Assembly: GCA_041665325.1 (NCBI GenBank)
Contig: JBAYJB010000001.1
Location: forward strand, 1 to 59,823
Source: Minisyncoccota bacterium
GTDB taxonomy: Bacteria > Patescibacteriota > Minisyncoccia > Phycocordibacterales > PALSA-1337
Direction of reading: 5' to 3'
Length of the DNA: 59,823 bases
The notes under the pieces are model-generated. The model was not told the DNA's origin. It made no database searches and worked only from the letters and a program-made list of their open reading frames with translations. Shown here piece after piece: positions 220 through 55,088 of this stretch; the first letter of the stretch is position 1; every line of letters starts with the position of its first letter. Both the position numbers and the translations under genes were made by a program.

Positions 220-255
220 TGCTATTGGCATTTTTCACTAGGATTTTAATGTTTC

Positions 256-332
256 TTCATCATTCCTTGAACTTTTCTTCATGGGAATTTGAATCTTTTT
301 TGAAGGAGATTTGAACCTCTGCCTGATATGCT
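256..332 (+). promoter_or_regulatory. Phased 11-bp hexamer array, copy A, facing pilB, plus a -10-like hexamer
   Basis: Hexamers TTCATC 256, TTGAAC 267, TTCATG 278, TTGAAT 289, TTGAAG 300, TTGAAC 311, spaced exactly 11 bp. Then N10, TATGCT 327-332, N6, ATG 339. This is the reverse complement of the arrays at 29139 and 36024. Confidence 0.55.
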
Positions 333-338
333 CTCGGC

Positions 339-1472
339 ATGAGTGAAATAAGGAAGAGAAAACAAGCGATCTTTCCGAGCAACCCGGCTTCCGCGGTGGA
401 GGCGGTCGATGGGGTGCTCGGGTATGCGGCGGGATTGCAGGCCTCAGATGTCCATATCGATCCGCGGAGACAGGATATCCTCGTGCGCCATCGAGTCGAC
501 GGAGAACTAGAGCTCGCCGGGACGCTTCCCAGGCATATCCATGAGGAGGTCGTGGCACGTCTCAAGATCCTTTCCGGAGCTCGTACCGATATCCACACTG
601 TACCGCAAGACGGCCGATGGCGCGCAGTTCTCGGAGATCAGACTTACAATATCCGTATTTCATTCATGCCGACATACCAGGGCGAGAATGCCGTGGTCCG
701 CTTCCTACCCGCCGAAGTGGCCGGGCAAGATTCTTTCGCGGCTCTCGGGTTCACGCCTGACCATGTGGTCAGCTTGAGCAACTCGCTAGCCAAGCCCAAC
801 GGCCTCATCCTGGTCACGGGACCGACCGGTTCGGGCAAGACGACCACTCTACGCATCTGCCTCGGCCTCAAGTCGGCTCAACCGCTGTCGGTCATGACCC
901 TTGAGGATCCAGTAGAATACGAAGTCCCGGGCGTGAGGCACGTCCATATCCGGGCCAGTCACGGCGTGTCGTTCGCCTCCGGCCTGCGCGCGGCTCTGCG
1001 TCAGGACCCCGATGTCATCATGGTCGGCGAGATCCGCGACCTCGAGACGGCCCGGACGGCCATGCATACGGCGATGACGGGACATCTGGTTCTCTCGACC
1101 TTGCATACGCGTTCGGCTCTCGAGACCATCTTACGGCTGTCGGATATGGGCATCGAGCGATACCTGATCGCCGCGACCCTGCGTCTCATCGTCAGTCAGC
1201 GTTTGGTCAGGACCGTCTGTCGCGATTGTGGCGGCGCCGGGGACGATTGTGCGGCCTGTCGGGGCTCGGGATTCCACGGCCGTTCAGTCATCGCCGAGAT
1301 CCTGTCTCTCGATGACGAGCTTAGAGATGCTATTTCGAGAGGCGATTCGCTATCAGCTGTCACCATCCTCGCCAGATCAAAGGGTTTTCGGACCATGGAG
1401 GAAGACGCGAGCGAGAAGGTCGACTGGGGAGTGACCACGAACGAAGAGATCGGGAAGGCTCTCTGCCCATAA
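339..1472 (+). CDS. pilB: Type IV pilus / type II secretion assembly ATPase (GspE/PilB family, short form)
   Basis: Walker A GPTGSGKTT, EDPVEY, Walker B DPDVIMVGEIRD, His box TGHLVLSTLHT, C-terminal Cys cluster CRDCGG..CAACRGSG. Confidence 0.9.
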   Translation: MSEIRKRKQAIFPSNPASAVEAVDGVLGYAAGLQASDVHIDPRRQDILVRHRVDGELELAGTLPRHIHEEVVARLKILSGARTDIHTVPQDGRWRAVLGDQTYNIRISFMPTYQGENAVVRFLPAEVAGQDSFAALGFTPDHVVSLSNSLAKPNGLILVTGPTGSGKTTTLRICLGLKSAQPLSVMTLEDPVEYEVPGVRHVHIRASHGVSFASGLRAALRQDPDVIMVGEIRDLETARTAMHTAMTGHLVLSTLHTRSALETILRLSDMGIERYLIAATLRLIVSQRLVRTVCRDCGGAGDDCAACRGSGFHGRSVIAEILSLDDELRDAISRGDSLSAVTILARSKGFRTMEEDASEKVDWGVTTNEEIGKALCP

Positions 1473-1476
1473 GCTC

Positions 1477-2520
1477 ATGTCGCTCAGATCTCATTGGAAC
1501 CGCAGGAGCAAGCTTATCTTCATGGAACAGCTGGAGATGTATGTCTCTTCCGGTCTACCCATCGTGAAGGCGCTGTCCGTGATCGGCGAGAGGATGCCGC
1601 GCAGGCAGAGAGAGCCGCTCGAGAGAGCGGGGAAGGCGATCGAGTCAGGCCAGCTCCTCTCGGCCTCTTTGTTGCGGGAGATCAAGCTTCCGCCAGCGAT
1701 CGTCGGCCTGATTGCTTCCGGAGAATCATCCGGTAATCTGGCCGAAACTCTTCGTTCCGGGCACGCGCTGCTCGCGCGCGAAGATGAGCTCTTCAAGAAG
1801 TGCTCCGGAGCTATGGTCTACCCGCTCGTCATTGGCCTGGCAACGGCCGCGCTCACTATCGGCCTGGTCAGGGGCATCATGCCGCAGATCATCCCTCTCC
1901 TTTCGAGCCTCCACAGCGATCTTCCGATCATGACTAGGATAGTCTTGGGTGCTTCAAGCGCCCTCACGGCCTACGGCCTCTATGGGGCAGTCGGATCTTT
2001 GCTTGCGGGCATCGTGTTCGCCGGCGCATACAGGAAGATCTTGTCTCTGCGAGGATTCGTCCACCTATGCGCCGCGAGAATTCCGGTCGTCGGCGGAGTT
2101 CTGACCGATTACCATCTAGCGCTCTTCTTCCAGTCTCTGGGAGCCTCTGTCGAGTCCGGGATACCGTTAGATGCCGCCTTCGACCGGACGGCTGCCACGA
2201 TCAGCCTCTTACCGCTGCGCCGCAAGCTCGGAGCTCTGACTCCGGCCATCGGACGCGGCGAAGCTGTGAGCCGGCTGTGCGCCCGGGTCATGCCGCCGTA
2301 TGTGACCGCGCTCATCGCCGCGGGCGAAGCTTCCGGCAATCTTGGCGGGGTCTTCTTGCGGGTGGCGGGGCTCATCGATCGTGAGCTCGACCACCTCCTG
2401 AAGCGCCTGACCGCTCTGATCGAGCCGCTCATGATGATCGGGATGGGGATGATCGTCGGCTCGATCGCTCTATCCATCATGATGCCGATATATGATATCT
2501 CGAAAGCTATCCAGAGATAG
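1477..2520 (+). CDS. pilC: Type IV pilus platform protein (GspF/PilC family)
   Basis: 347 aa polytopic membrane protein with two T2SSF-like repeats (GESSGNL / GEASGNL), immediately downstream of pilB. Confidence 0.88.
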   Translation: MSLRSHWNRRSKLIFMEQLEMYVSSGLPIVKALSVIGERMPRRQREPLERAGKAIESGQLLSASLLREIKLPPAIVGLIASGESSGNLAETLRSGHALLAREDELFKKCSGAMVYPLVIGLATAALTIGLVRGIMPQIIPLLSSLHSDLPIMTRIVLGASSALTAYGLYGAVGSLLAGIVFAGAYRKILSLRGFVHLCAARIPVVGGVLTDYHLALFFQSLGASVESGIPLDAAFDRTAATISLLPLRRKLGALTPAIGRGEAVSRLCARVMPPYVTALIAAGEASGNLGGVFLRVAGLIDRELDHLLKRLTALIEPLMMIGMGMIVGSIALSIMMPIYDISKAIQR

Positions 2521-2530
2521 CCGGTCCGGC

Positions 2531-3952
2531 ATGATCGCAGTCGACGCTCTCCTGGCCTTAGTCCTTGCGGCCGTATTCGTGTCTGGCATCACGGCGGCGA
2601 CGCTCGAAGCCAGGCAGATGTTCGACCGGGCACGAGATCGATCGGCGCTGATCGCAGCGTATGCGGAGCATCGGGCTGATTTCGACGGGCTCCTGCCGTA
2701 TGAGACTCGGTCGAAGCATTACTTGATCGGCTCTACCACTGAAGCGATCACCATCGAAGCTAGGACGACATGGTACGGCAATGACCGGATCGAAACACAT
2801 GTGAGCGCCGCCTATCGTGGTCGGTCTGTTACATTCCGCACAGTCAAGAATTACCCGTTCCAGGATATAAGCGAGTCTGCTGGTACGCCGCTCTGCACAG
2901 TAGATATGTCGGATGATCAGACAGTGAGTCCCTCCATCGCTATCATTCCCGTCGCATTGCCGATAGACCCGCTATTGCCTCTCATCGACATTGAAGTCAG
3001 GAATGGTATCGCTTATATCTCGATCGATTCGACTGTTGCATCAGATCCGGATTTCATCGTCGTCGATATCAAGGATCCAAAACAGCCAAATCTGCTGTCA
3101 TCGGTAAACACCGGGCCGGGATTGACAGCCTTCGCCCTCGCCGGGAAATATGTGTTTGCGGCGGCTGCGAGCACTGCGGCCCAACTGCATGTGATCCGCC
3201 TAGATAGTCTCACATCTACGGTTTTAGCCAAGAAGTATAAATTACCATTGCCCGAGGCCAGTACTACGCCACCCACAGGCAGTACGATATTCTACGACAA
3301 GGGCAAGATCTATCTCGGCACCGGAAAATGGGATGGGGAAGAGCTGTCGATCCTAGATGTTTCGAATCCGGAAGGGCCGATCATGGTCGACGGGTTCGAG
3401 ACGGGCAGCAAGGTCAATGATGTCATCGTACGCGCTGGCATCGCATATTTGGCTGCATCTGACTCGAGCCAACTACGTTCCATAGACATAAGAGATGCTG
3501 GTTACCCGTTGCTCCTAGAAACATTTAGCCCATCTGGTTCAGATAGACAAGAAGGGAAGGTGTTGGTTTATTTCGAGGATGGTCTGCATCTTGGACGAAC
3601 ATCGGGTGGATTCAACATCAAGGCCGATCACGAATTGTTCCGGTTCCCGAGCTCCTCATCCACACCGAGCGCATATGAGCCAAATCGGCCGCCCGATATC
3701 GCGCAATCCGAAAATTCGCGCGATATTCCTGGTGGAGTATACGGCATCATTGCCAGCCGTTCGCATGTCTATGTAGCGACACGGAATATTGATCGCGAAT
3801 TAACTATCCTTAGCGTATCACTATCGTCTACTACGGCCTCGTACTATCCGTTACCAGTCGCTCCACAAGCGATGACCTGTGACTTAGACCACCTGTATAT
3901 TCTCGCCAAAACAGCGCCTGTCATATATGAAGTCGATCTCAAAAAACAATAA
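2531..3952 (+). CDS. Membrane-anchored beta-propeller-like protein with LVIVD-type repeats
   Basis: The ORF track starts at 2492. ATG 2531 lies after the pilC stop. It has an N-terminal hydrophobic helix and recurring motifs: FIVVDIKDPKQPNLL, LSILDVSNPEGPIMV, LRSIDIRDAGYPLLL. Confidence 0.55.
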   Translation: MIAVDALLALVLAAVFVSGITAATLEARQMFDRARDRSALIAAYAEHRADFDGLLPYETRSKHYLIGSTTEAITIEARTTWYGNDRIETHVSAAYRGRSVTFRTVKNYPFQDISESAGTPLCTVDMSDDQTVSPSIAIIPVALPIDPLLPLIDIEVRNGIAYISIDSTVASDPDFIVVDIKDPKQPNLLSSVNTGPGLTAFALAGKYVFAAAASTAAQLHVIRLDSLTSTVLAKKYKLPLPEASTTPPTGSTIFYDKGKIYLGTGKWDGEELSILDVSNPEGPIMVDGFETGSKVNDVIVRAGIAYLAASDSSQLRSIDIRDAGYPLLLETFSPSGSDRQEGKVLVYFEDGLHLGRTSGGFNIKADHELFRFPSSSSTPSAYEPNRPPDIAQSENSRDIPGGVYGIIASRSHVYVATRNIDRELTILSVSLSSTTASYYPLPVAPQAMTCDLDHLYILAKTAPVIYEVDLKKQ

Positions 3953-4100
3953 TACCGAGATAGGATTCACCCTGATCGAAATGCTCATATATATCGCTCT
4001 TTTGTCATGCCTCATGAGCGCCTTCGTGCCATATGCCTATACCATCCATGAACAAGACCTCCGCTTGCTCGACGAGATCTATGCCGCGGGAGCTTCCTGA
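3927..4100 (+). CDS. Very small prepilin-type protein (57 aa), absent from the ORF track
   Basis: ATG 3927 to TGA 4098-4100. Translation MKSISKNNNTEIGFTLIEMLIYIALLSCLMSAF... carries the class III signal motif G/FTLIE followed by a hydrophobic helix. It overlaps both neighbouring genes. Confidence 0.6.
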   Translation: MKSISKNNNTEIGFTLIEMLIYIALLSCLMSAFVPYAYTIHEQDLRLLDEIYAAGAS

Positions 4101-4341
4101 ACGGGGGTTCATCGCCGTCGTCGCCATCCTGCTCATCTCCGGCGGTATCGCGGCCCTGTCACTGTCGGTCCTTGGGGCAGCCGTCTCATATTCTGATTCT
4201 GTCTATCGTAGAGAGATGCGCCTACAAGCCAGTCTCGATGATCTGGCCTGTGAAGACACGGCGAAGCTCATAAGAGCCAAGGATGCGTTCGCCTCTGGTA
4301 TTGTCCATCTCGATGAATTCGATTGCGATATCGCCTTATAA
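4081..4341 (+). CDS. Pseudopilin-like small protein (no Glu at +5)
   Basis: Internal ATG 4081 of ORF 4033..4341 gives MPRELPERGFIAVVAILLISGGIAAL, a prepilin-like G/F junction plus hydrophobic helix. It sits in the pilin cluster. Confidence 0.5.
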   Translation: MPRELPERGFIAVVAILLISGGIAALSLSVLGAAVSYSDSVYRREMRLQASLDDLACEDTAKLIRAKDAFASGIVHLDEFDCDIAL

Positions 4342-4363
4342 ATCAAAAACTCATCAAATCATC

Positions 4364-4840
4364 ATGCAAAAATTCCATCTCTGCAAAAAAGGGTTCACTC
4401 TCATCGAGGTCCTGGTCGTCATCGGCATCATCGCGGTGTTGGCTTCGATCGTCCTAGTGGCCGTCAATCCGGCCAGACAGTTCAAACTAGCCCGGGATTC
4501 GCAACGGACCGCTAATGTTAACACCCTGCTGAATGCTATCCATCAGAACATCTCGGAGCACCACGGCTCGTTCGTGTGTGGCGGTTCGATCCGTAATATG
4601 CCCCAGACAGCCATGACCGTGAAGTATGGGGCAGGGTTTCCATCCTATGAAGGAGACATCGCTTCGTGTTTGATCCCCGATTATATATCGACGATGCCGT
4701 TCGATCCCTCGAAGATTGGAGCTCATTATGCGGGCTTGGCCGATTATGATACCGGTTACGAGATCTTCCAAGATGCGAACGGCCGCATCACAGCCAGTTC
4801 GAGCGGGGAATTAACGCCTTCGATATCTGTGACGCGTTGA
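4364..4840 (+). CDS. Type IV pilin (prepilin-type N-terminal cleavage/methylation domain)
   Basis: ATG 4364 gives MQKFHLCKKGFTLIEVLVVIGIIAVLASIVLVAV, the canonical G/FTLIE motif. Confidence 0.85.
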   Translation: MQKFHLCKKGFTLIEVLVVIGIIAVLASIVLVAVNPARQFKLARDSQRTANVNTLLNAIHQNISEHHGSFVCGGSIRNMPQTAMTVKYGAGFPSYEGDIASCLIPDYISTMPFDPSKIGAHYAGLADYDTGYEIFQDANGRITASSSGELTPSISVTR

Positions 4841-6587: not shown

Positions 6588-8492
6588 TTAGACCTCGAGC
6601 ATCTTGAGTAGGCGTGAGAGTTTGATGGTGGCTACGCCGATGACGCGGTCGCCGGCGCCATAGTAGATGTAGACGGTCCCGCCGCGCAGGGTCGTACCAC
6701 AAGGGAAGACCACATTGGGCACCACGCCCTTGTGCTCGTATTCCTCCTGGGGCTCGAACAGAGGAATAGCCGTGCGGGCCCGCACGATCGTCGGGTCCTC
6801 GAGGTCAAGCAAGACGGCGCCGACGCGGTAGGTCGTGCTCCACGAGACGCCGTGGTAGAGGAGGAGCCAGCCAGCCTTGGTCTTGATCGGCGGCGTCGAG
6901 ATGCCGACCTTGCCGCCGTCCCACATGCCGCGGCGCGGAGCGATGATCTCGATACACTGGTTGACCCGCTCTTTGGTGAAGTCGAGCGTTTTCACGAAGT
7001 CGGCGCAGACGCTCTCGCCGACACGGTGGAAGACCATATAAGCCCCCTTGATCTTCTCCGGCAGGATAGCGGCGTCCTTGTCCGGTACGCCTGCAGGCGT
7101 GATCGCTTCCGGCATAGACCAGGCGCTCCATTTCTTCTTGAGGAAATCCTTGACGGTGATCGAACTCACGGCGACGCGGGGTGTAGATCCATCGTAGCCG
7201 GTGTAGGTCATATATAACATATCATCGATCTCTACGATCCGAGGATCCTCACAGCCGTAATTGTTCTTGGCTCCGTCGCCCCGTATCTCGAAGCTTGCTC
7301 GCGGGAAATAGACGGGTTTGTCCGGTCGTTCGTCGATCGAGAATCCGTCGCTGGATTGAGCATAGCCGATCGTGGACACGTTGCCGTCAGCCACGGCGCG
7401 ATAGAGGATGTGTGTCTTGCCGCCGAGCTCGATAGCGGCCGGATTGATCGTGCCACCAGCTTCCCAGAGTACTCCGGGCCGGGGTGAGATGATCGGATTG
7501 CCCGGGAAACGGGTAGCGTACTTGAGTTCGACTGAAGTGATGCTATTCAGAAGATTATCGAGCGGGATAGTCGCCACAGCTACATATGTATCGGTAGCCC
7601 CATAATATATCTCCAGACGTCCGCCGCGGATGAGCGCGCCGGAAGGGAAGATGGTGTGGGAGACATGCCCGACCTCCTCATAGAAGGCTTCCGGGACCAT
7701 GAATGGCCCCTTGGTTCGGCCGATGATCTGCCGGGGGTTTTTGAGGTCCAAAAGCAGGACCTCGACGCCGAAGACTTGTTCCCTCCGTCCATAGCGTTGG
7801 ATATGGGCATATACGACGAGCCAGCCCTTTTCGGTCTTGATCGGTGCCGCACCAAGTTCGAGATGGTCGTCAGGCAGGCGTCGTACTGAGAGCTTGTGAG
7901 CATCGACATTCTTCTGCCACTCTGCCCAATATTCCTGCGACCACATGTCTTCCGGACGGTCGAATTCGGCATAGCAGATGTCGGAAGGTTTACGATCGGT
8001 GTTGATGGTGAGCAGGGCCGCGTACTTGCCGCCGATCTTCTCGGGGAACATGCCCATGGCCTTGGCATTGAAAGGGGTGACGAGATGCTTCTCGTCGACG
8101 GTCTTGAGGTCTTTGGACAAGGCTACGGCCACTTTGATGTTGTCAGCGCCGAACGGATACCCGCCCAGAGCGGTGTAGAAGATATAGTAGGTGCCGCCCA
8201 TTTTGGTCACCCGAGGATCTTCGCATCCATAGAGATCGAATTCCCGATCAGGCCGTACCAAAGGGCGTCGGTTGTCATAATGGACGCCGTCAGTAGAAGT
8301 GGCGGCGGCGATGACTGAAGTGCTGGCGTGGGATTCCTTGAGGAGGTCGGGCTCGGACTGCGCGCGATAGATCATGTGGATCTTCTTACCATCGATGACC
8401 GGACAGCCGTTGAAGGCAGCGGCCGCCTCGAACGGATGATCCTCGACAGGTGAGAGGATGGGATTGTTTTCTGAACGGGTGACAGTGAACAT
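6588..8492 (-). CDS. Tandem two-domain glycoside hydrolase family 130 protein (mannoside phosphorylase/hydrolase family)
   Basis: Two GH130/DUF377-like halves, each with NPI(L/I)SP...FN..., GCEDPR(V/I) and YYGA(G/T)D motifs, about residues 1-320 and 321-634. Confidence 0.8.
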   Translation of the reverse strand: MFTVTRSENNPILSPVEDHPFEAAAAFNGCPVIDGKKIHMIYRAQSEPDLLKESHASTSVIAAATSTDGVHYDNRRPLVRPDREFDLYGCEDPRVTKMGGTYYIFYTALGGYPFGADNIKVAVALSKDLKTVDEKHLVTPFNAKAMGMFPEKIGGKYAALLTINTDRKPSDICYAEFDRPEDMWSQEYWAEWQKNVDAHKLSVRRLPDDHLELGAAPIKTEKGWLVVYAHIQRYGRREQVFGVEVLLLDLKNPRQIIGRTKGPFMVPEAFYEEVGHVSHTIFPSGALIRGGRLEIYYGATDTYVAVATIPLDNLLNSITSVELKYATRFPGNPIISPRPGVLWEAGGTINPAAIELGGKTHILYRAVADGNVSTIGYAQSSDGFSIDERPDKPVYFPRASFEIRGDGAKNNYGCEDPRIVEIDDMLYMTYTGYDGSTPRVAVSSITVKDFLKKKWSAWSMPEAITPAGVPDKDAAILPEKIKGAYMVFHRVGESVCADFVKTLDFTKERVNQCIEIIAPRRGMWDGGKVGISTPPIKTKAGWLLLYHGVSWSTTYRVGAVLLDLEDPTIVRARTAIPLFEPQEEYEHKGVVPNVVFPCGTTLRGGTVYIYYGAGDRVIGVATIKLSRLLKMLEV

Positions 8493-28773: not shown

Positions 28774-29115
28774 TTACTGGACGCTCCAGAAAAGTAAATA
28801 TTTTTGTAAGTCTTTCAAAATAACAGTGATGTTTATTCCTTTAACTTTTGCACTGACAGCGTAAAACAAATCGCCATTTCTGTTTCGTTGCATCATAGAT
28901 CCAATTTCCAAAACTGTTGGGGCATGAGTGATAAGATGCAGTCTTCGTAATTGATCGGATTTATTTCTGGGGTTCCCGTAACCATTGTAGGTCAGATGAC
29001 GAAATCCGGATGCGTCAAAGACCACATCAGCATTGACGCATTCATAGAATCTCGAACCGAGTTTAAAATACCAATCCCTTCTTTTCTTCAAGAGAAACTC
29101 GTAATTATCTTGCAT
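28774..29115 (-). CDS. Hypothetical 113-aa protein (unknown family; toxin-like genomic context)
   Basis: AT-rich ORF. ATG 29115 is preceded by TATGGT-N6. The track start 29121 is TTG. I recognise no family. Confidence 0.5.
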   Translation of the reverse strand: MQDNYEFLLKKRRDWYFKLGSRFYECVNADVVFDASGFRHLTYNGYGNPRNKSDQLRRLHLITHAPTVLEIGSMMQRNRNGDLFYAVSAKVKGINITVILKDLQKYLLFWSVQ

Positions 29116-29138
29116 TCTCAAACCATAACAGGGGAGGG

Positions 29139-29199
29139 TTCAAGAAACATTCAAGAAAAGTTCAAATATTCATGAATATTTGTTCAAGTTTCCATGAAG
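29139..29199. promoter_or_regulatory. Phased 11-bp hexamer array, copy B, between the 113-aa gene and livH
   Basis: TTCAAG 29139, TTCAAG 29150, TTCAAA 29161, ATGAAT 29172, TTCAAG 29183, ATGAAG 29194. Includes the perfect 18-bp palindrome AAATATTCATGAATATTT. Confidence 0.55.
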
Positions 29200-29253
29200 G
29201 GCGCTGCCCTTGCCCGCGCGGCAGGGAAATGGCTATACTAGAGCCACTCATCC

Positions 29254-35580: not shown

Positions 35581-36000
35581 TTAATCGGACAAGTTTACAT
35601 TTTGTAGGAGCATGAAGGCCAGCATCATTAGGGTCTTCCAGAATTCCATCTCTTTTACTTGGCCTATCTTTCTTAGTAGGCGTTTGCTACTGATAGTTCT
35701 GATCTGCGATGGCACTATGTGTGATTCCGTTCCCGTGCTTTTGGTCGTTATGCCTCGGTTCCTGTCGCTGATCTTGCTCGTGAGAGGCACTATCCAGAGG
35801 CGGTCGTTACTTATCTTCTTGATGATAAGAACAGGTCTTTCGAAGAGATCATTTTTCCCGTCCTGTTCGGAGCCTATATTGACGCCCAAGGCGCACCACC
35901 AGACCTCTCTTTCGTGGAAGAAGTCCTCGAAATTGGTCTTATTGATCTGTTCGGCATAAGCCGCCCATTTCTTGAAATCTTTGATGTATTCCTTGTCCAT
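35581..36000 (-). CDS. PemK/MazF-fold toxin-like protein with no adjacent antitoxin ORF (T1)
   Basis: REVWWCALGVNIGSEQDGKNDLFERPVLIIK aligns with MazF GDLIWVDFDPTKGSEQAGHRPAVVLS; also IVPLTSK and SQIRTISSKRL. TAGAGT-N6-ATG lies upstream. Confidence 0.75.
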   Translation of the reverse strand: MDKEYIKDFKKWAAYAEQINKTNFEDFFHEREVWWCALGVNIGSEQDGKNDLFERPVLIIKKISNDRLWIVPLTSKISDRNRGITTKSTGTESHIVPSQIRTISSKRLLRKIGQVKEMEFWKTLMMLAFMLLQNVNLSD

Positions 36001-36023
36001 CGTGCTACTCTAACAAATGGGTG

Positions 36024-36084
36024 TTCAAATAATCTTCAAAAAAGGTTCAAATTTTAATGAAGAAAGGTTCAAATCCTTATGAAT
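36024..36084. promoter_or_regulatory. Phased 11-bp hexamer array, copy C, between MazF-like gene 1 and SBP8
   Basis: TTCAAA 36024, 36035 and 36046; ATGAAG 36057; TTCAAA 36068; ATGAAT 36079. Same order and spacing as copy B. Confidence 0.55.
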
Positions 36085-36128
36085 TTTTATGGTTTGCTAA
36101 ATTTCAGCAATTTTTATATGCTTTGGGC

Positions 36129-37268
36129 ATGAATAAAAAATACATCTGGGGCATCGTGATCCTGGTAGTAATCATCATCATTCTTGGCCTCATCGTCTGG
36201 GGCGTAAGGTCGTCTGGGACGGAGAGATTGAATCTAAATGAACCAGTAAAAATAGGCGGGTTGTTCAATCTAACTGGTTATGGTGGTTTTGCCGGAGAGG
36301 CTTCTAGAGACGGATTTATCATGGCGATTGAAGACGCAGACTTACCGGAGGGTATGATCGAGACTGTCATAGAAGATGGTCAATCTGACCTCAAGGCCGT
36401 TGTTTCTGGAGCGACCAAGATGACAGAGATAGACAAGGTCATCGCGGTTATTGGTCCTGAGTGGACAGAGTTTGGCGAGGTTGCCGCTCCGATCGCTGTC
36501 AGGAATAAGATTCCGTTTATCTCACCATGGATCGTTGCGGAAATACCGTTTGTCAAACCACCATACTTCTGGTCAGCTAGCCCAAGTTATCGTTCTGAAC
36601 ATGCCGCCTTAGCCGCATATCTCGCAAAGAAAGGGTTAAATAGAATTTCCGTAGTGTACTCGAAGAATGCTTGGTCATTTGCAGATTTAGAGATGTTTAA
36701 GGAAGAGGCGGCGAAGTACTCTACGTTGACTTTCATATCCGAGCAGGGATTGGATCAAACTACGCGTGATTTCCGTACGGTTATCGCTAAGATTAAGTCA
36801 GACAAACCAGATGAAGTGTATGTAGCGATAGCGGAAGATGATGCTTATGGCGCATTTCTGTCTCAGGCTCGTCAGGGCGGTATTATCGTCCCTATAAGCA
36901 CATTCTCTTCCCGTGCTACCTCGGAGGTGATAAAAGATCGTTATCCTCAAGCTCTTCCCGGACAGCTGTTCGCTGATTCTGCTCCGGCAGAACGTTCCAC
37001 AGAATTTGCTGATAAATATGAGAAGAGGTTTGGGAAGAAGGTGGGGGCCCCAAGTGCTGCTGCGACATATGACATGTTGACGGTCATACTCAACGCTGTG
37101 CGATCGGGGGCACGAACTTCTCCAGAAGTGATCTCTTATATGCAGAAGATGTCTGCGTTTGAGGGGTATTCCGGCCAGATTCATTTTGATGAACAGGGAC
37201 ATCTTCCGTTGCGTAAGGCGGTTGTACGACTGGTCAATACTGATGGCATAGCAGAGGAAGTGAAATAA
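36129..37268 (+). CDS. LivK-type substrate-binding protein (SBP8)
   Basis: ATG 36129 gives the MNKKYIWGIVILVVIIIILGLIVWG anchor, then PVKIGGLFNLTGYGGFAGEASRDG. TATGCT-N6-ATG lies upstream. Confidence 0.85.
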   Translation: MNKKYIWGIVILVVIIIILGLIVWGVRSSGTERLNLNEPVKIGGLFNLTGYGGFAGEASRDGFIMAIEDADLPEGMIETVIEDGQSDLKAVVSGATKMTEIDKVIAVIGPEWTEFGEVAAPIAVRNKIPFISPWIVAEIPFVKPPYFWSASPSYRSEHAALAAYLAKKGLNRISVVYSKNAWSFADLEMFKEEAAKYSTLTFISEQGLDQTTRDFRTVIAKIKSDKPDEVYVAIAEDDAYGAFLSQARQGGIIVPISTFSSRATSEVIKDRYPQALPGQLFADSAPAERSTEFADKYEKRFGKKVGAPSAAATYDMLTVILNAVRSGARTSPEVISYMQKMSAFEGYSGQIHFDEQGHLPLRKAVVRLVNTDGIAEEVK

Positions 37269-37335: not shown

Positions 37336-38142
37336 TTACTTCTTCGAATTCTCCCACAGATTATCAAACAGGAGTTTCATAGTCTCTGCGAACTCTTTGC
37401 TGTGCACGGTGAAGGCGATCTTTTCCGCGCCGCCGGAGGCAAACAGGCACTTGTTGCCGTAGAGCCAGAAGTTCATCTTCCATTTGGCGTTCTTGGGTAG
37501 ATAGCGGACCGACACAAGGTTGTCCTTGGCGTCATTCTTGAGCCACTCATGCTTCTTGTCACCCTGGATCTTGCGGTCCTCGTGCTTCTCGATAGCGTAG
37601 ATGAAGACGTCGTACTTGAAGCGTTGCGTGCCGTGCCACTTGAAGAAATCCTCGTCGATCGAGATCATGTCGCGTGTGGCCCAGAGCATGTGGGTCTCGG
37701 TGATGCCGCGCTCCCACATCATGTCCCTGAATGCCTGCTTGATCCCGAGCGTGCCGGCATAGAACTTGACCTTGGGGCGGGCGACTGAGTCCACCTTGTT
37801 GTGTCCCTTCACGAATGAGATCAAGGACGCTTGAGCGTTCTTGAGTTCCGTGAGCTTCTTCTCGTGTGCGCGGGTAAGCTGGTCAAGATCAGAGACTCCA
37901 AATGTCTTACCGCGTCCGTCATTGTATTCGTTGATCAGGCTCTCGGCCAAGAGGGGAGTGACCCCGTCGTATATGGTGGATTTGGGCATATTGAGCCGCG
38001 AAGAAAGCTCGGCCACGGATGAAGTGCCATGGTTGATGATATCGAGAAGGATCTTCTTGGATGGGGCCGCCAGGCCGAAGATATCCAGAAAATGCCCCTG
38101 TTCCCCGTTGTTTTCTCTAGCATTCGCTTTTCGCCGAATCAT
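37336..38142 (-). CDS. TrmB-like winged-helix transcriptional regulator (paralog 1)
   Basis: N-terminal HTH: KKILLDIINHGTSSVAELSSRLNMPKSTIYDGVTPL. About 270 aa. ATG 38142 is preceded by TATCTT-N6. The track start 38148 is TTG. Confidence 0.6.
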   Translation of the reverse strand: MIRRKANARENNGEQGHFLDIFGLAAPSKKILLDIINHGTSSVAELSSRLNMPKSTIYDGVTPLLAESLINEYNDGRGKTFGVSDLDQLTRAHEKKLTELKNAQASLISFVKGHNKVDSVARPKVKFYAGTLGIKQAFRDMMWERGITETHMLWATRDMISIDEDFFKWHGTQRFKYDVFIYAIEKHEDRKIQGDKKHEWLKNDAKDNLVSVRYLPKNAKWKMNFWLYGNKCLFASGGAEKIAFTVHSKEFAETMKLLFDNLWENSKK

Positions 38143-38198: not shown

Positions 38199-38215
38199 TA
38201 AGCTACACTAATACT

Positions 38216-48813: not shown

Positions 48814-48849
48814 GTGGAGTAAAATACCCATCAAGTGGGAAGAAGTGGT
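48814..48849 (+). promoter_or_regulatory. Candidate MraZ operator: three GTGG(A/G/T) direct repeats upstream of mraZ
   Basis: GTGGA 48814, GTGGG 48835, GTGGT 48845, spaced 21 and 10 nt, about 30-60 nt upstream of ATG 48878. Confidence 0.4.
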
Positions 48850-48877
48850 ATAACAACTTCCTGCTCATATTATCAAC

Positions 48878-49318
48878 ATGCTCATCGGGCAATTCAATCA
48901 CACTATCGACGACAAGAATCGCCTCTCGCTTCCCGCCAAATTCCGCAAGGAAATGGGGAAGAAAGTGGTGATTACCCCCGGACTCGATTCCTGCCTCTTC
49001 ATCTTCACGATGAACGAATGGTCCAGGATCTCCGGGCACTTGTCCGTGAAAGAAAGTTCGATGCTCAAAAGTGACAACCGAGCCTTCAACCGCTACCTAT
49101 TCGGGGGAGCGGTCGAAGTCGAGGTTGACGCGGTCGGCCGGATGCTCCTCCCGGAGCTCTTGCGTGAGCGCGCCAAGCTGGGTACGAAAGTTTCATTCAT
49201 CGGCGTCCGCGATCGCGTGGAGCTGTGGGATGAGACGGCTTGGCAGGCTTACGCAAAGGACGTCGAGGGGAAAGCCGGCACGCTCGCTGACAAATTGAGC
49301 CAGGAGGGCATGCTCTAA
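48878..49318 (+). CDS. mraZ: Transcriptional regulator MraZ
   Basis: Two SpoVT/AbrB-like halves: DDKNRLSLPAKFR and VDAVGRMLLPELLR. First gene of the dcw block. Confidence 0.92.
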   Translation: MLIGQFNHTIDDKNRLSLPAKFRKEMGKKVVITPGLDSCLFIFTMNEWSRISGHLSVKESSMLKSDNRAFNRYLFGGAVEVEVDAVGRMLLPELLRERAKLGTKVSFIGVRDRVELWDETAWQAYAKDVEGKAGTLADKLSQEGML

Positions 49319-54449: not shown

Positions 54450-54476
54450 TAAGCTAGTTTGATATAATATAACCAC

Positions 54477-55088
54477 ATGCAAGCAATATCTGAAACTATG
54501 GGGTTTTATGCGCTCGTATTCTTCCTCCTCTTGTTTTTCTGGATGGTTTTCTCTATTCCATCTTTCGTAAGAAGCGCTCGGCTCTATGCACTGTCCAAGA
54601 AGGCCGGGCTCAATTATAGTAGGGTCGGTCCGTCGAAAAATCCGATCTGGAATTTGAATTTTTTCGCCCCTCTGACAAAGAACCTCATATCAGGCGAATA
54701 TCAGGGTCGCAGTATATCTATCAAAGATATGACCCGGATATCGGGAGGACTCCCACGCTTCCAACGGGCATATCGCCTTACGGAAATCAACGGAAAGGTT
54801 TACGGCAGGCTCTCTGTGTCTGTGATTCGCGGATTCATTTATTCAAACGAAAGCTTAGAAACTCATAAATTTAGTAACTTCGGGAAAATCAGTTTCGGGA
54901 TGTACTATATAGGAACTCTGGCAGCTGGATTCATTGTGTATGCGATCATCCAATTCTACGAGGCGCACATCATTTATAAGGCGCTGCTGTCGATAGCGGT
55001 TTTAGTCTTTTTTATTACAGCTGGCCATTTTCTAGCAAAGCATAATCGATATATCAAACTGGAAAAGAATGAGATGGAGGTCGATTAA
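54477..55088 (+). CDS. Hypothetical membrane protein
   Basis: 203-aa ORF with an N-terminal TM helix and two C-terminal TM helices. TGATATAAT extended -10 lies 8 nt upstream. Confidence 0.45.
   Translation: MQAISETMGFYALVFFLLLFFWMVFSIPSFVRSARLYALSKKAGLNYSRVGPSKNPIWNLNFFAPLTKNLISGEYQGRSISIKDMTRISGGLPRFQRAYRLTEINGKVYGRLSVSVIRGFIYSNESLETHKFSNFGKISFGMYYIGTLAAGFIVYAIIQFYEAHIIYKALLSIAVLVFFITAGHFLAKHNRYIKLEKNEMEVD

Follow-up and report, generated by a model that had tools for sequence, protein, structure and literature searches.

A phased array of 11-bp-spaced half-sites at predicted leaderless promoters: a candidate response-regulator module for pilus, DNA-uptake and recombination genes in Patescibacteria

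A promoter module built of phased hexamers stands at the head of the type IV pilus operon of a Minisyncoccota bacterium. Judged from its sequence and from the genes around it, the module is probably a Pho-box-like activator array for P0121, a response regulator of the OmpR/PhoB family, and would control genes for pili, DNA uptake and recombination. [quoted passage not shown] Searches of the open-access literature in PubMed Central and bioRxiv gave no account of the motif, nor of a CPR pilus or competence regulon, its regulator or its promoter code. The module offers a testable definition of a regulon, made up of a motif of 61 bp, a promoter geometry that does not vary and a candidate regulator that can be named. 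With the motif in hand one could search metagenome-assembled genomes (MAGs), read metatranscriptomes and build inducible promoters for those few CPR bacteria that can be cultivated, and the uncharacterised members of the regulon (LPD3-like proteins, an LCAT-like hydrolase and a small RNA) become candidates for functions in an acquisition lifestyle.

The window is the whole stretch of DNA that was analysed, 59,823 nucleotides in length. It lies within a metagenomic contig of 154,757 bp (ENA ERZ27249449 k141_377210), whose proteins are labelled Paceibacterota or Patescibacteria. The architecture of the array, its conservation and its register to the -10 element are read directly from the DNA. 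Upstream of pilB the six hexamers have exactly the sequences and starting positions given in the first-pass annotation (Table 1), which also reported reverse-complement arrays at two other sites; both arrays are there, although the coordinates given for them (29139-29199 and 36024-36084) were each 1 nt too high. All three copies are 61 bp long and have a super-period of 22 bp, with TTCATn-N5-TTGAAC-N5 occurring twice, followed by TTGAAn-N5-TTGAAC. The pilB array covers the stretch from ∼-83 to -23, counted from the predicted start, the equivalent of three 22-bp dimer-type sites, and two degenerate distal hexamers, at 234 and 245, lengthen it to eight positions, the full-length form in relatives. 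Allowing at most one mismatch, TTGAA-N6-TTGAA-N6-TTGAA has three matches in the window against 0.00 expected (100 shuffles), and a search of the 59.8 kb for further phased arrays of at least three hexamers finds none (shuffle mean 0.04). Across the four known copies in this genome, hexamer positions 1-5 have 100% pairwise identity and position 6 has 50%; the spacers have 53% and the N10 segment 43%. Invariant hexamers with drifting spacers are the pattern expected of an array that binds a protein.

The promoter behind each array is equally constrained. The pattern TTGAAC-N10-TAnnnT-N6-ATG, said earlier to be identical in geometry at the three copies, is returned by a search of the window at these three sites alone (0.13 expected), and the three -10-like hexamers are those originally listed. 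Three features had escaped notice: a TGn that makes the -10 an extended one at all three sites, the distal hexamers at 234 and 245, and the 22-bp super-period. A sigma-70-type -35 at 16-18 bp from the -10 is found at none of the three sites. It is present at ordinary promoters of the window, such as TTGCCC-18-TATACT (at 29210) and TTGAAT-16-TACACT (ahead of 38216). Leaderless transcription appears to be general in this organism, and leaderless mRNAs seem common because many gene starts in the window lie exactly 6 nt past a TAnnnT, with no room for a Shine-Dalgarno sequence (examples in Table 1).

Table 1. Positions of module copies, promoter elements, genes and RNA features; coordinates refer to the window unless a contig or locus is named
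Feature	Coordinates	Strand	Details
Six-hexamer array, pilB site	256-316	+	TTCATC, TTGAAC, TTCATG, TTGAAT, TTGAAG, TTGAAC
Hexamer starts, pilB site	256, 267, 278, 289, 300, 311	+	Exact 11-bp phase
Two degenerate in-phase distal hexamers	234-255	+	TTCACT 234-239, TTTAAT 245-250
Second six-hexamer array	29138-29198	-	TTCATG, TTGAAC, TTCATG, TTGAAC, TTGAAT, TTGAAC
Third six-hexamer array	36023-36083	-	TTCATA, TTGAAC, TTCATT, TTGAAC, TTGAAG, TTGAAC
Extended -10, TGa-TATGCT	324-332; hexamer 327-332	+	10 bp past last TTGAAC
Extended -10, TGt-TATGGT	29122-29130	-	Then N6, ATG at 29115
Extended -10, TGt-TAGAGT	36007-36015	-	Then N6, ATG at 36000
pilB ATG	339-341	+	6 nt past -10; predicted start of leaderless mRNA
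Other gene starts 6 nt past TAnnnT (examples)	12209-12223; 13570-13584 (-); 13612-13626; 36117-36131; 38204-38218; 39925-39939; 42772-42786; 54465-54479
Type IV pilus operon	339-4840	+	Module at its head
pilB-like ATPase gene	339-1472	+	T2SSE
pilC-like gene	1477-2520	+	T2SSF
Gene for 486-aa protein	2492-3952	+	In pilus operon
N_methyl pilin-like gene	4283-4840	+	In pilus operon
Gene for 113-aa LPD3-family small protein	28774-29115	-	PF18798 match on homologue L014
Gene for 139-aa MazF/PemK-like protein	35581-36000	-	PF02452, E 4.8e-12; module upstream
Two TrmB-like genes	37336-38142; 40671-41492	-	In solute-binding cluster
Putative MraZ boxes	48814, 48835, 48845		GTGGAG, GTGGGA, GTGGTA; 21-bp and 10-bp spacing
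Split-comEC module copies	L040 1629-1667, 4096-4134; L030 4189, 6198		One per gene
tRNA-like sequence	L073 ∼16345-16418	-
tRNA-like sequence	L028, core 7272-7310	-	Downstream of module copy (core position given)
Regulator gene P0121	Window's contig 114253-114951 = L076 10001-10699		Exact sequence match
Fourth six-hexamer module	Starts 35 nt past regulator stop codon		Then N10-TATGAT-N6
Predicted ∼175-nt non-coding transcript	L076 10818-10995		Also L016, L022, L042, L079

Apart from the genes listed, the pilus operon contains small prepilin-like genes. The other two arrays each precede a small gene, and both of these had been described as toxin-like. A match to a toxin family (MazF/PemK) is found for the 139-aa protein only; the 113-aa protein belongs to the LPD3 family, and three further genomes have a homologue of it placed behind the module. 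Both small genes sit, in opposite orientation, within a very large cluster (window ∼24170-46724) of at least 12 paralogous genes for Peripla_BP_6-type solute-binding proteins (SBPs), which also has permease and ATPase genes of the branched-chain amino acid type. The two TrmB-like proteins encoded in this cluster had been put forward as candidate regulators and are not favoured, since one has a weak TrmB match below the Pfam cutoff and the other has none; both lie within the solute-binding-protein locus, without a link to the modules. In a relative (L073), the pilus operon is likewise followed by an SBP/TrmB locus of similar make-up. Elsewhere in the window, GTGG(A/G/T) repeats at 48814-48850, upstream of mraZ (48878-49318), resemble MraZ boxes ahead of the mraZ-rsmH-ftsL-ftsI cluster.

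For a view of the module beyond this genome, a genome set with a single representative of each species was scanned, along with metagenome contigs from JGI, with TTCAT-N6-TTGAA-N6-TTGAA-N6-TTGAAC, a 21-base core that holds no promoter element, and pieces of 2-20 kb of other genomes were inspected. The matches listed are mainly CPR loci, and the smaller remainder are simple tandem repeats of 11 bp from unrelated taxa; in viral contigs the matches listed are unrelated tandem repeats or iterons. Among the matches listed, there are at least 10 copies in a Taylorbacteria MAG, at least five in a CPR MAG labelled Saccharibacteria and at least ∼8 in one metagenome, and the module occurs with the same geometry in at least six related genomes. 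The 11-bp phase is exact in the three window copies and in 31 related ones. The first-pass annotation would have been refuted by a module that proved to be a dispersed repeat unrelated to gene starts, and the register to the promoter speaks otherwise: a TAnnnT, with a background frequency of 0.0098 per position, stands at exactly N10 in 28 of the 31 unique CPR copies listed and at N9 in two more, and the remaining copy has CATACT at N10. A TGn precedes the -10 in 21 of 30-31 CPR copies listed, and an ATG, GTG or TTG lies exactly 6 nt past it in 13 of 31.

Array length varies from four to eight hexamers across relatives, in sizes of 4, 6 or 8 positions, and the four proximal hexamers are the most conserved. 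The half-sites are paired, with a 22-bp super-period in both half-site identity and spacer type, and in several genomes the spacers are AAAAT and TTTTT by turns, in helical phase. Among module-bearing genomes PilB is 67-76% identical, and four pilB upstream regions align free of gaps, so that all hexamers fall in register, as do the -10 and the start codon. With increasing distance the array changes its form. In L073 (62% PilB identity) the arrays are made up entirely of TTGAAC, keep the 22-bp spacer alternation and are placed upstream of pilB, of a pilin gene and of a tRNA-like sequence; in L072 (64%) the array is decayed yet phased, and the T-tracts persist while the hexamers decay; in L074 (60%) no clear 11-bp array is present. 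Judged from these comparisons, the behaviour of the module is that of an evolving transcription-factor regulon and not of a random dispersed repeat, because it recurs with the same geometry upstream of orthologous genes.

The genes behind the module are observed directly and form a consistent set. The first gene is that of the pilB operon in four genomes, comEC (Pfam Competence and DUF4131) in four, a gene for a ComEC C-terminal-like MBL protein in two and comM (Mg-chelatase-like) in two. An rpsF-ssb-rpsR-recA cluster follows the module in three genomes, with a leader of ∼200 nt between them, and dnaG does so in one. An LCAT-like secreted protein of ∼950 aa is encoded behind the module in four genomes, as are LPD3-family small proteins (the window's 113-aa ORF among them), and a small coiled-coil protein in two. 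The pilus, the ComEC channel and the recombination-mediator genes thus have one cis-element in common, as in a competence regulon; dprA, comFC and comEA are absent from the loci sampled.

Several of these loci have details of their own. Split comEC occurs as an N-terminal channel gene and a separate gene for a 304-aa MBL-like protein (weak NCBIfam MBL match only), each with its own module copy. Behind the dnaG module (L010 868-1003) comes a leader of ∼110 nt that matches nothing in Rfam and may be a regulatory RNA. In the leaders of the LCAT-like genes (L009, L018, L039 and L054) the predicted transcript opens with a perfect palindrome, GCGCATTA-N4-6-TAATGCGC, which could be a stabilising 5' hairpin or a second operator. 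In two genomes, tRNA-like sequences of ∼72 nt lie directly behind module promoters, with an acceptor-like stem, a GGTTCGAnnCC T-arm and a poor D-arm; they give no call with ARAGORN or with the tRNA model of Rfam. Module copies with no downstream ORF have no relevant matches in Rfam or ARAGORN.

A regulator of the OmpR/PhoB type was only hypothesised in the first-pass annotation; its gene is now found on the same contig, ∼27 kb beyond the left end of the window and beside a fourth copy of the module. When E. coli PhoB is compared by tblastn with all fetched sequence, matches occur at three CPR loci (L042, L022 and L016), each immediately upstream of a module copy. The candidate regulator is a protein of 232 aa with Response_reg and Trans_reg_C domains; it keeps the acceptor Asp, its recognition helix SNTVEAHIRNLRKKL is conserved, and its closest solved relative is Thermotoga DrrD. 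It passes none of the NCBIfam equivalog cutoffs and is not an orthologue of PhoB, as the NCBIfam PhoB models score below cutoff (TIGR02154, 166.7 bits against 296.2; the other, 111 against 471). The regulator gene is preceded by a conventional -35/-10 promoter of its own. Its adjacency to a module is observed in six of the six genomes examined, a number that may reflect one ancestral arrangement kept by synteny and not six independent observations. The search covered ∼90 kb of this genome, which may encode other regulators elsewhere. That pilB and the two small genes are co-regulated, within a larger conserved regulon, is plausible because the same module and geometry, the fixed -10 register and an OmpR/PhoB-type regulator beside the fourth copy all point the same way. 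Genomes with arrays of other hexamers (TTTATC, TTGAGG) nevertheless have the identical recognition helix, so that specificity must be loose or another factor involved.

In the window's clade, the fourth module stands ahead of a predicted structured non-coding transcript of ∼175 nt, which has a conserved 5' hairpin GGTTATGWGTCGAMATAACC, a terminator-like end and a predicted minimum free energy (MFE) of -73.8 kcal/mol (z = -4.15), has no Rfam match and faces a convergent PD-(D/E)XK gene. Two more distant genomes (L078 and L080) have regulators that are 66% and 62% identical, and in both a histidine kinase gene follows a variant-hexamer module and the same 5' hairpin. Because these distant relatives have an equivalent module and hairpin in front of a kinase gene, the ancestral layout was probably regulator gene, module, leader and kinase gene, which looks like positive autoregulation of a two-component system. 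No histidine kinase gene follows the module in the window's clade, so the regulator would be an orphan there. A broader proposal, which we put forward tentatively and hold to be slightly short of an even chance, is that one OmpR-family two-component regulator runs an 'acquisition' regulon (pili, ComEC, ComM, SSB/RecA, the lipase-like hydrolase and LPD3/MazF-like proteins) through an unusually long Pho-box-like array of 4-8 half-sites and leaderless promoters, the cognate kinase having been lost from the locus in the window's clade and the module-driven leader kept as a structured small RNA. If this proposal is true, it may be the earliest put forward for a cis-regulatory code, and for a regulator, of CPR pili and competence.

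Regulator binding, the direction of regulation, the start sites and the signal are deduced, and the mechanism is accordingly phrased as a proposal. Dimers of the phosphorylated regulator would bind head-to-tail along a single helix face, each taking a pair of half-sites 11 bp apart, with a half-site core of TTGAA/TTCAT, or loosely TTnA. Three dimers would fit the arrays of the window and two to four those of relatives. The promoter-proximal pair, at ∼-39 to -23, would end exactly 10 bp before the extended -10 and replace the missing -35; the dimer bound there would contact RNA polymerase of the sigma-70 type, recruiting or stabilising it as PhoB does at Pho boxes. Transcription would then start at or beside the A of the ATG and give a leaderless mRNA. 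The regulon is proposed to comprise the type IV pilus operon, comEC, comM, rpsF-ssb-rpsR-recA, dnaG and the genes for the LCAT-like hydrolase and LPD3-like proteins, together with the two-component system's own kinase gene or leader and, in this genome, the MazF-like gene. It would be conserved in a clade of CPR Paceibacterota and serve pilus-mediated attachment, DNA uptake and recombination.

The extended -10 might allow transcription independent of an activator, and the same protein could then repress. In an ArcA-style arrangement the same response regulator would use the same array to coat -83 to -23 of extended -10 promoters. The TGn in 21 of 30-31 copies could give the basal transcription that this calls for, and ArcA, of the same family, mainly represses through 2-5 direct repeats with 11-bp spacing (PMC3798270). 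We nevertheless regard repression as unlikely, since 30 of 31 copies end exactly N10 (rarely N9) from the -10, at the position of a -35 where there is no -35, and contact with RNA polymerase would call for so strict a register, which is also the geometry published for PhoB as an activator, whereas repressors need none. A marginally smaller chance is given to another binder altogether, be it LexA of the alphaproteobacterial type, a LytTR-type regulator (period of ∼22 bp) or a lineage-specific competence factor. The 22-bp super-period of the array would suit such a protein, recA and ssb are among the targets, and TTGAAC-N5-TTGAAC holds GAAC-N7-GAAC, the reverse complement of GTTC-N7-GTTC (PMC8565304, PMC9578287). 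Yet tblastn finds no LexA (E. coli and B. subtilis queries; window and CPR loci), no ComK-like and no AgrA-like (LytTR) gene in the fetched CPR DNA, which is of limited extent; the ∼30 targets include no lexA, uvrA or dinB and are not SOS-like; SOS boxes are single dimer sites and not arrays of 4-8 half-sites in register with a -10; and the OmpR-family regulator is the only transcription factor found beside a module.

The remaining alternatives dispense with a dedicated regulator. The array could be an upstream element, protein-independent or dependent on the alpha-CTD, in which phased A/T tracts and curvature make a strong constitutive promoter. The helix-phased alternation of AAAAT and TTTTT spacers in several genomes is in its favour, as is the survival of T-tracts beyond the hexamers in L072. 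It is nonetheless improbable: the spacers of the window's genome are 53% conserved and not consistently A/T (GGAAT, GAGAT, ATTCC), hexamer positions 1-5 are invariant with the G or C at position 3 included, and the targets are functionally coherent and not simply highly expressed genes. Least probable, with only a very small chance of being right, is a mobile or propagating repeat that carries a promoter, of the MITE-like or 'mobile promoter' kind. The copies in the Taylorbacteria MAG, nearly identical over ∼88 bp with the spacers included, could be taken for such a repeat, but length varies from 4 to 8 hexamers, terminal inverted repeats and similarity beyond the array are absent, only the hexamers are conserved in the window's genome, and the copies keep a fixed register with the -10 and the gene or RNA start and lie upstream of orthologous genes even though PilB is ∼70% identical. 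Two other ideas were rejected. An alternative sigma factor fails because hexamer-to-(-10) spacings of 10 or 21 bp fit no known sigma and the TAnnnT -10 is the ordinary one, in use across the genome; reading the array as a CRP-like inverted repeat (TTCA-N8-TGAA) fails because the arrays of more distant relatives consist of direct TTGAAC repeats alone.

With the Pho-box-like activator array as the preferred reading, the mechanism is of a known kind, that of the Pho box or of ArcA-type response-regulator arrays. It is not the Pho regulon, because the regulator is no PhoB equivalog, the half-site differs and no pst/pho targets are seen. The PhoB Pho box consists of tandem direct repeats with an 11-bp period that end 10 bp upstream of a TAN3T -10, and the Pho-box-type likeness noticed at the outset is borne out, as 11-bp repeats, 10 bp to a TAnnnT -10 and the lack of a -35 equal this published geometry (PMC1906773). 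A/T-rich linkers and a proximal pair that substitutes for the -35 are further common points (PMC1906773), and in both systems several boxes per promoter are possible and the two-component system regulates, or in the present case would regulate, part of itself. The module differs from PhoB sites in its half-site (TTGAA/TTCAT, against CTGTCAT in the Pho box), in having six to eight half-sites as the norm, in its predicted leaderless promoters with TGn, in a regulator that is not the PhoB equivalog and in its targets, which are pilus, DNA-uptake and recombination genes; among the ∼30 first genes, drawn from the sampled part of each genome, there is no pst, phoA or other phosphate-acquisition gene.

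ArcA binds 2-5 direct repeats with a centre-to-centre spacing of 11 or 22 bp, leaving footprints of 30-60 bp (PMC3798270). It shares with the candidate regulator its membership of the OmpR/PhoB family and the variable number of direct repeats. ArcA sites are mostly repressive and variably placed, whereas the module has a fixed register to the -10 and lacks a -35. The alphaproteobacterial LexA box, GTTC-N7-GTTC (PMC8565304, PMC9578287), has the core tetranucleotide and spacing of the module on the other strand, and recA and ssb are targets in both. LexA occupies a single dimer site and governs a DNA-repair regulon that includes lexA, in contrast with the arrays of 4-8 sites seen here, and in the part of the genomes covered the module targets overlap the SOS set in recA and ssb only.

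Competence in Firmicutes and Gammaproteobacteria is governed by elements such as the ComK K-boxes, the ComX cin-box, the ComE repeats and Sxy/CRP-S. Those regulons, like the one proposed here, place a single cis-element before the genes for a type IV pilus or pseudopilus and before comEC, comM, ssb and recA, and differ from it in the cis-element and in the presumed family of the regulator. Within the CPR, natural competence has recently been shown experimentally in Saccharibacteria (PMC10633639).
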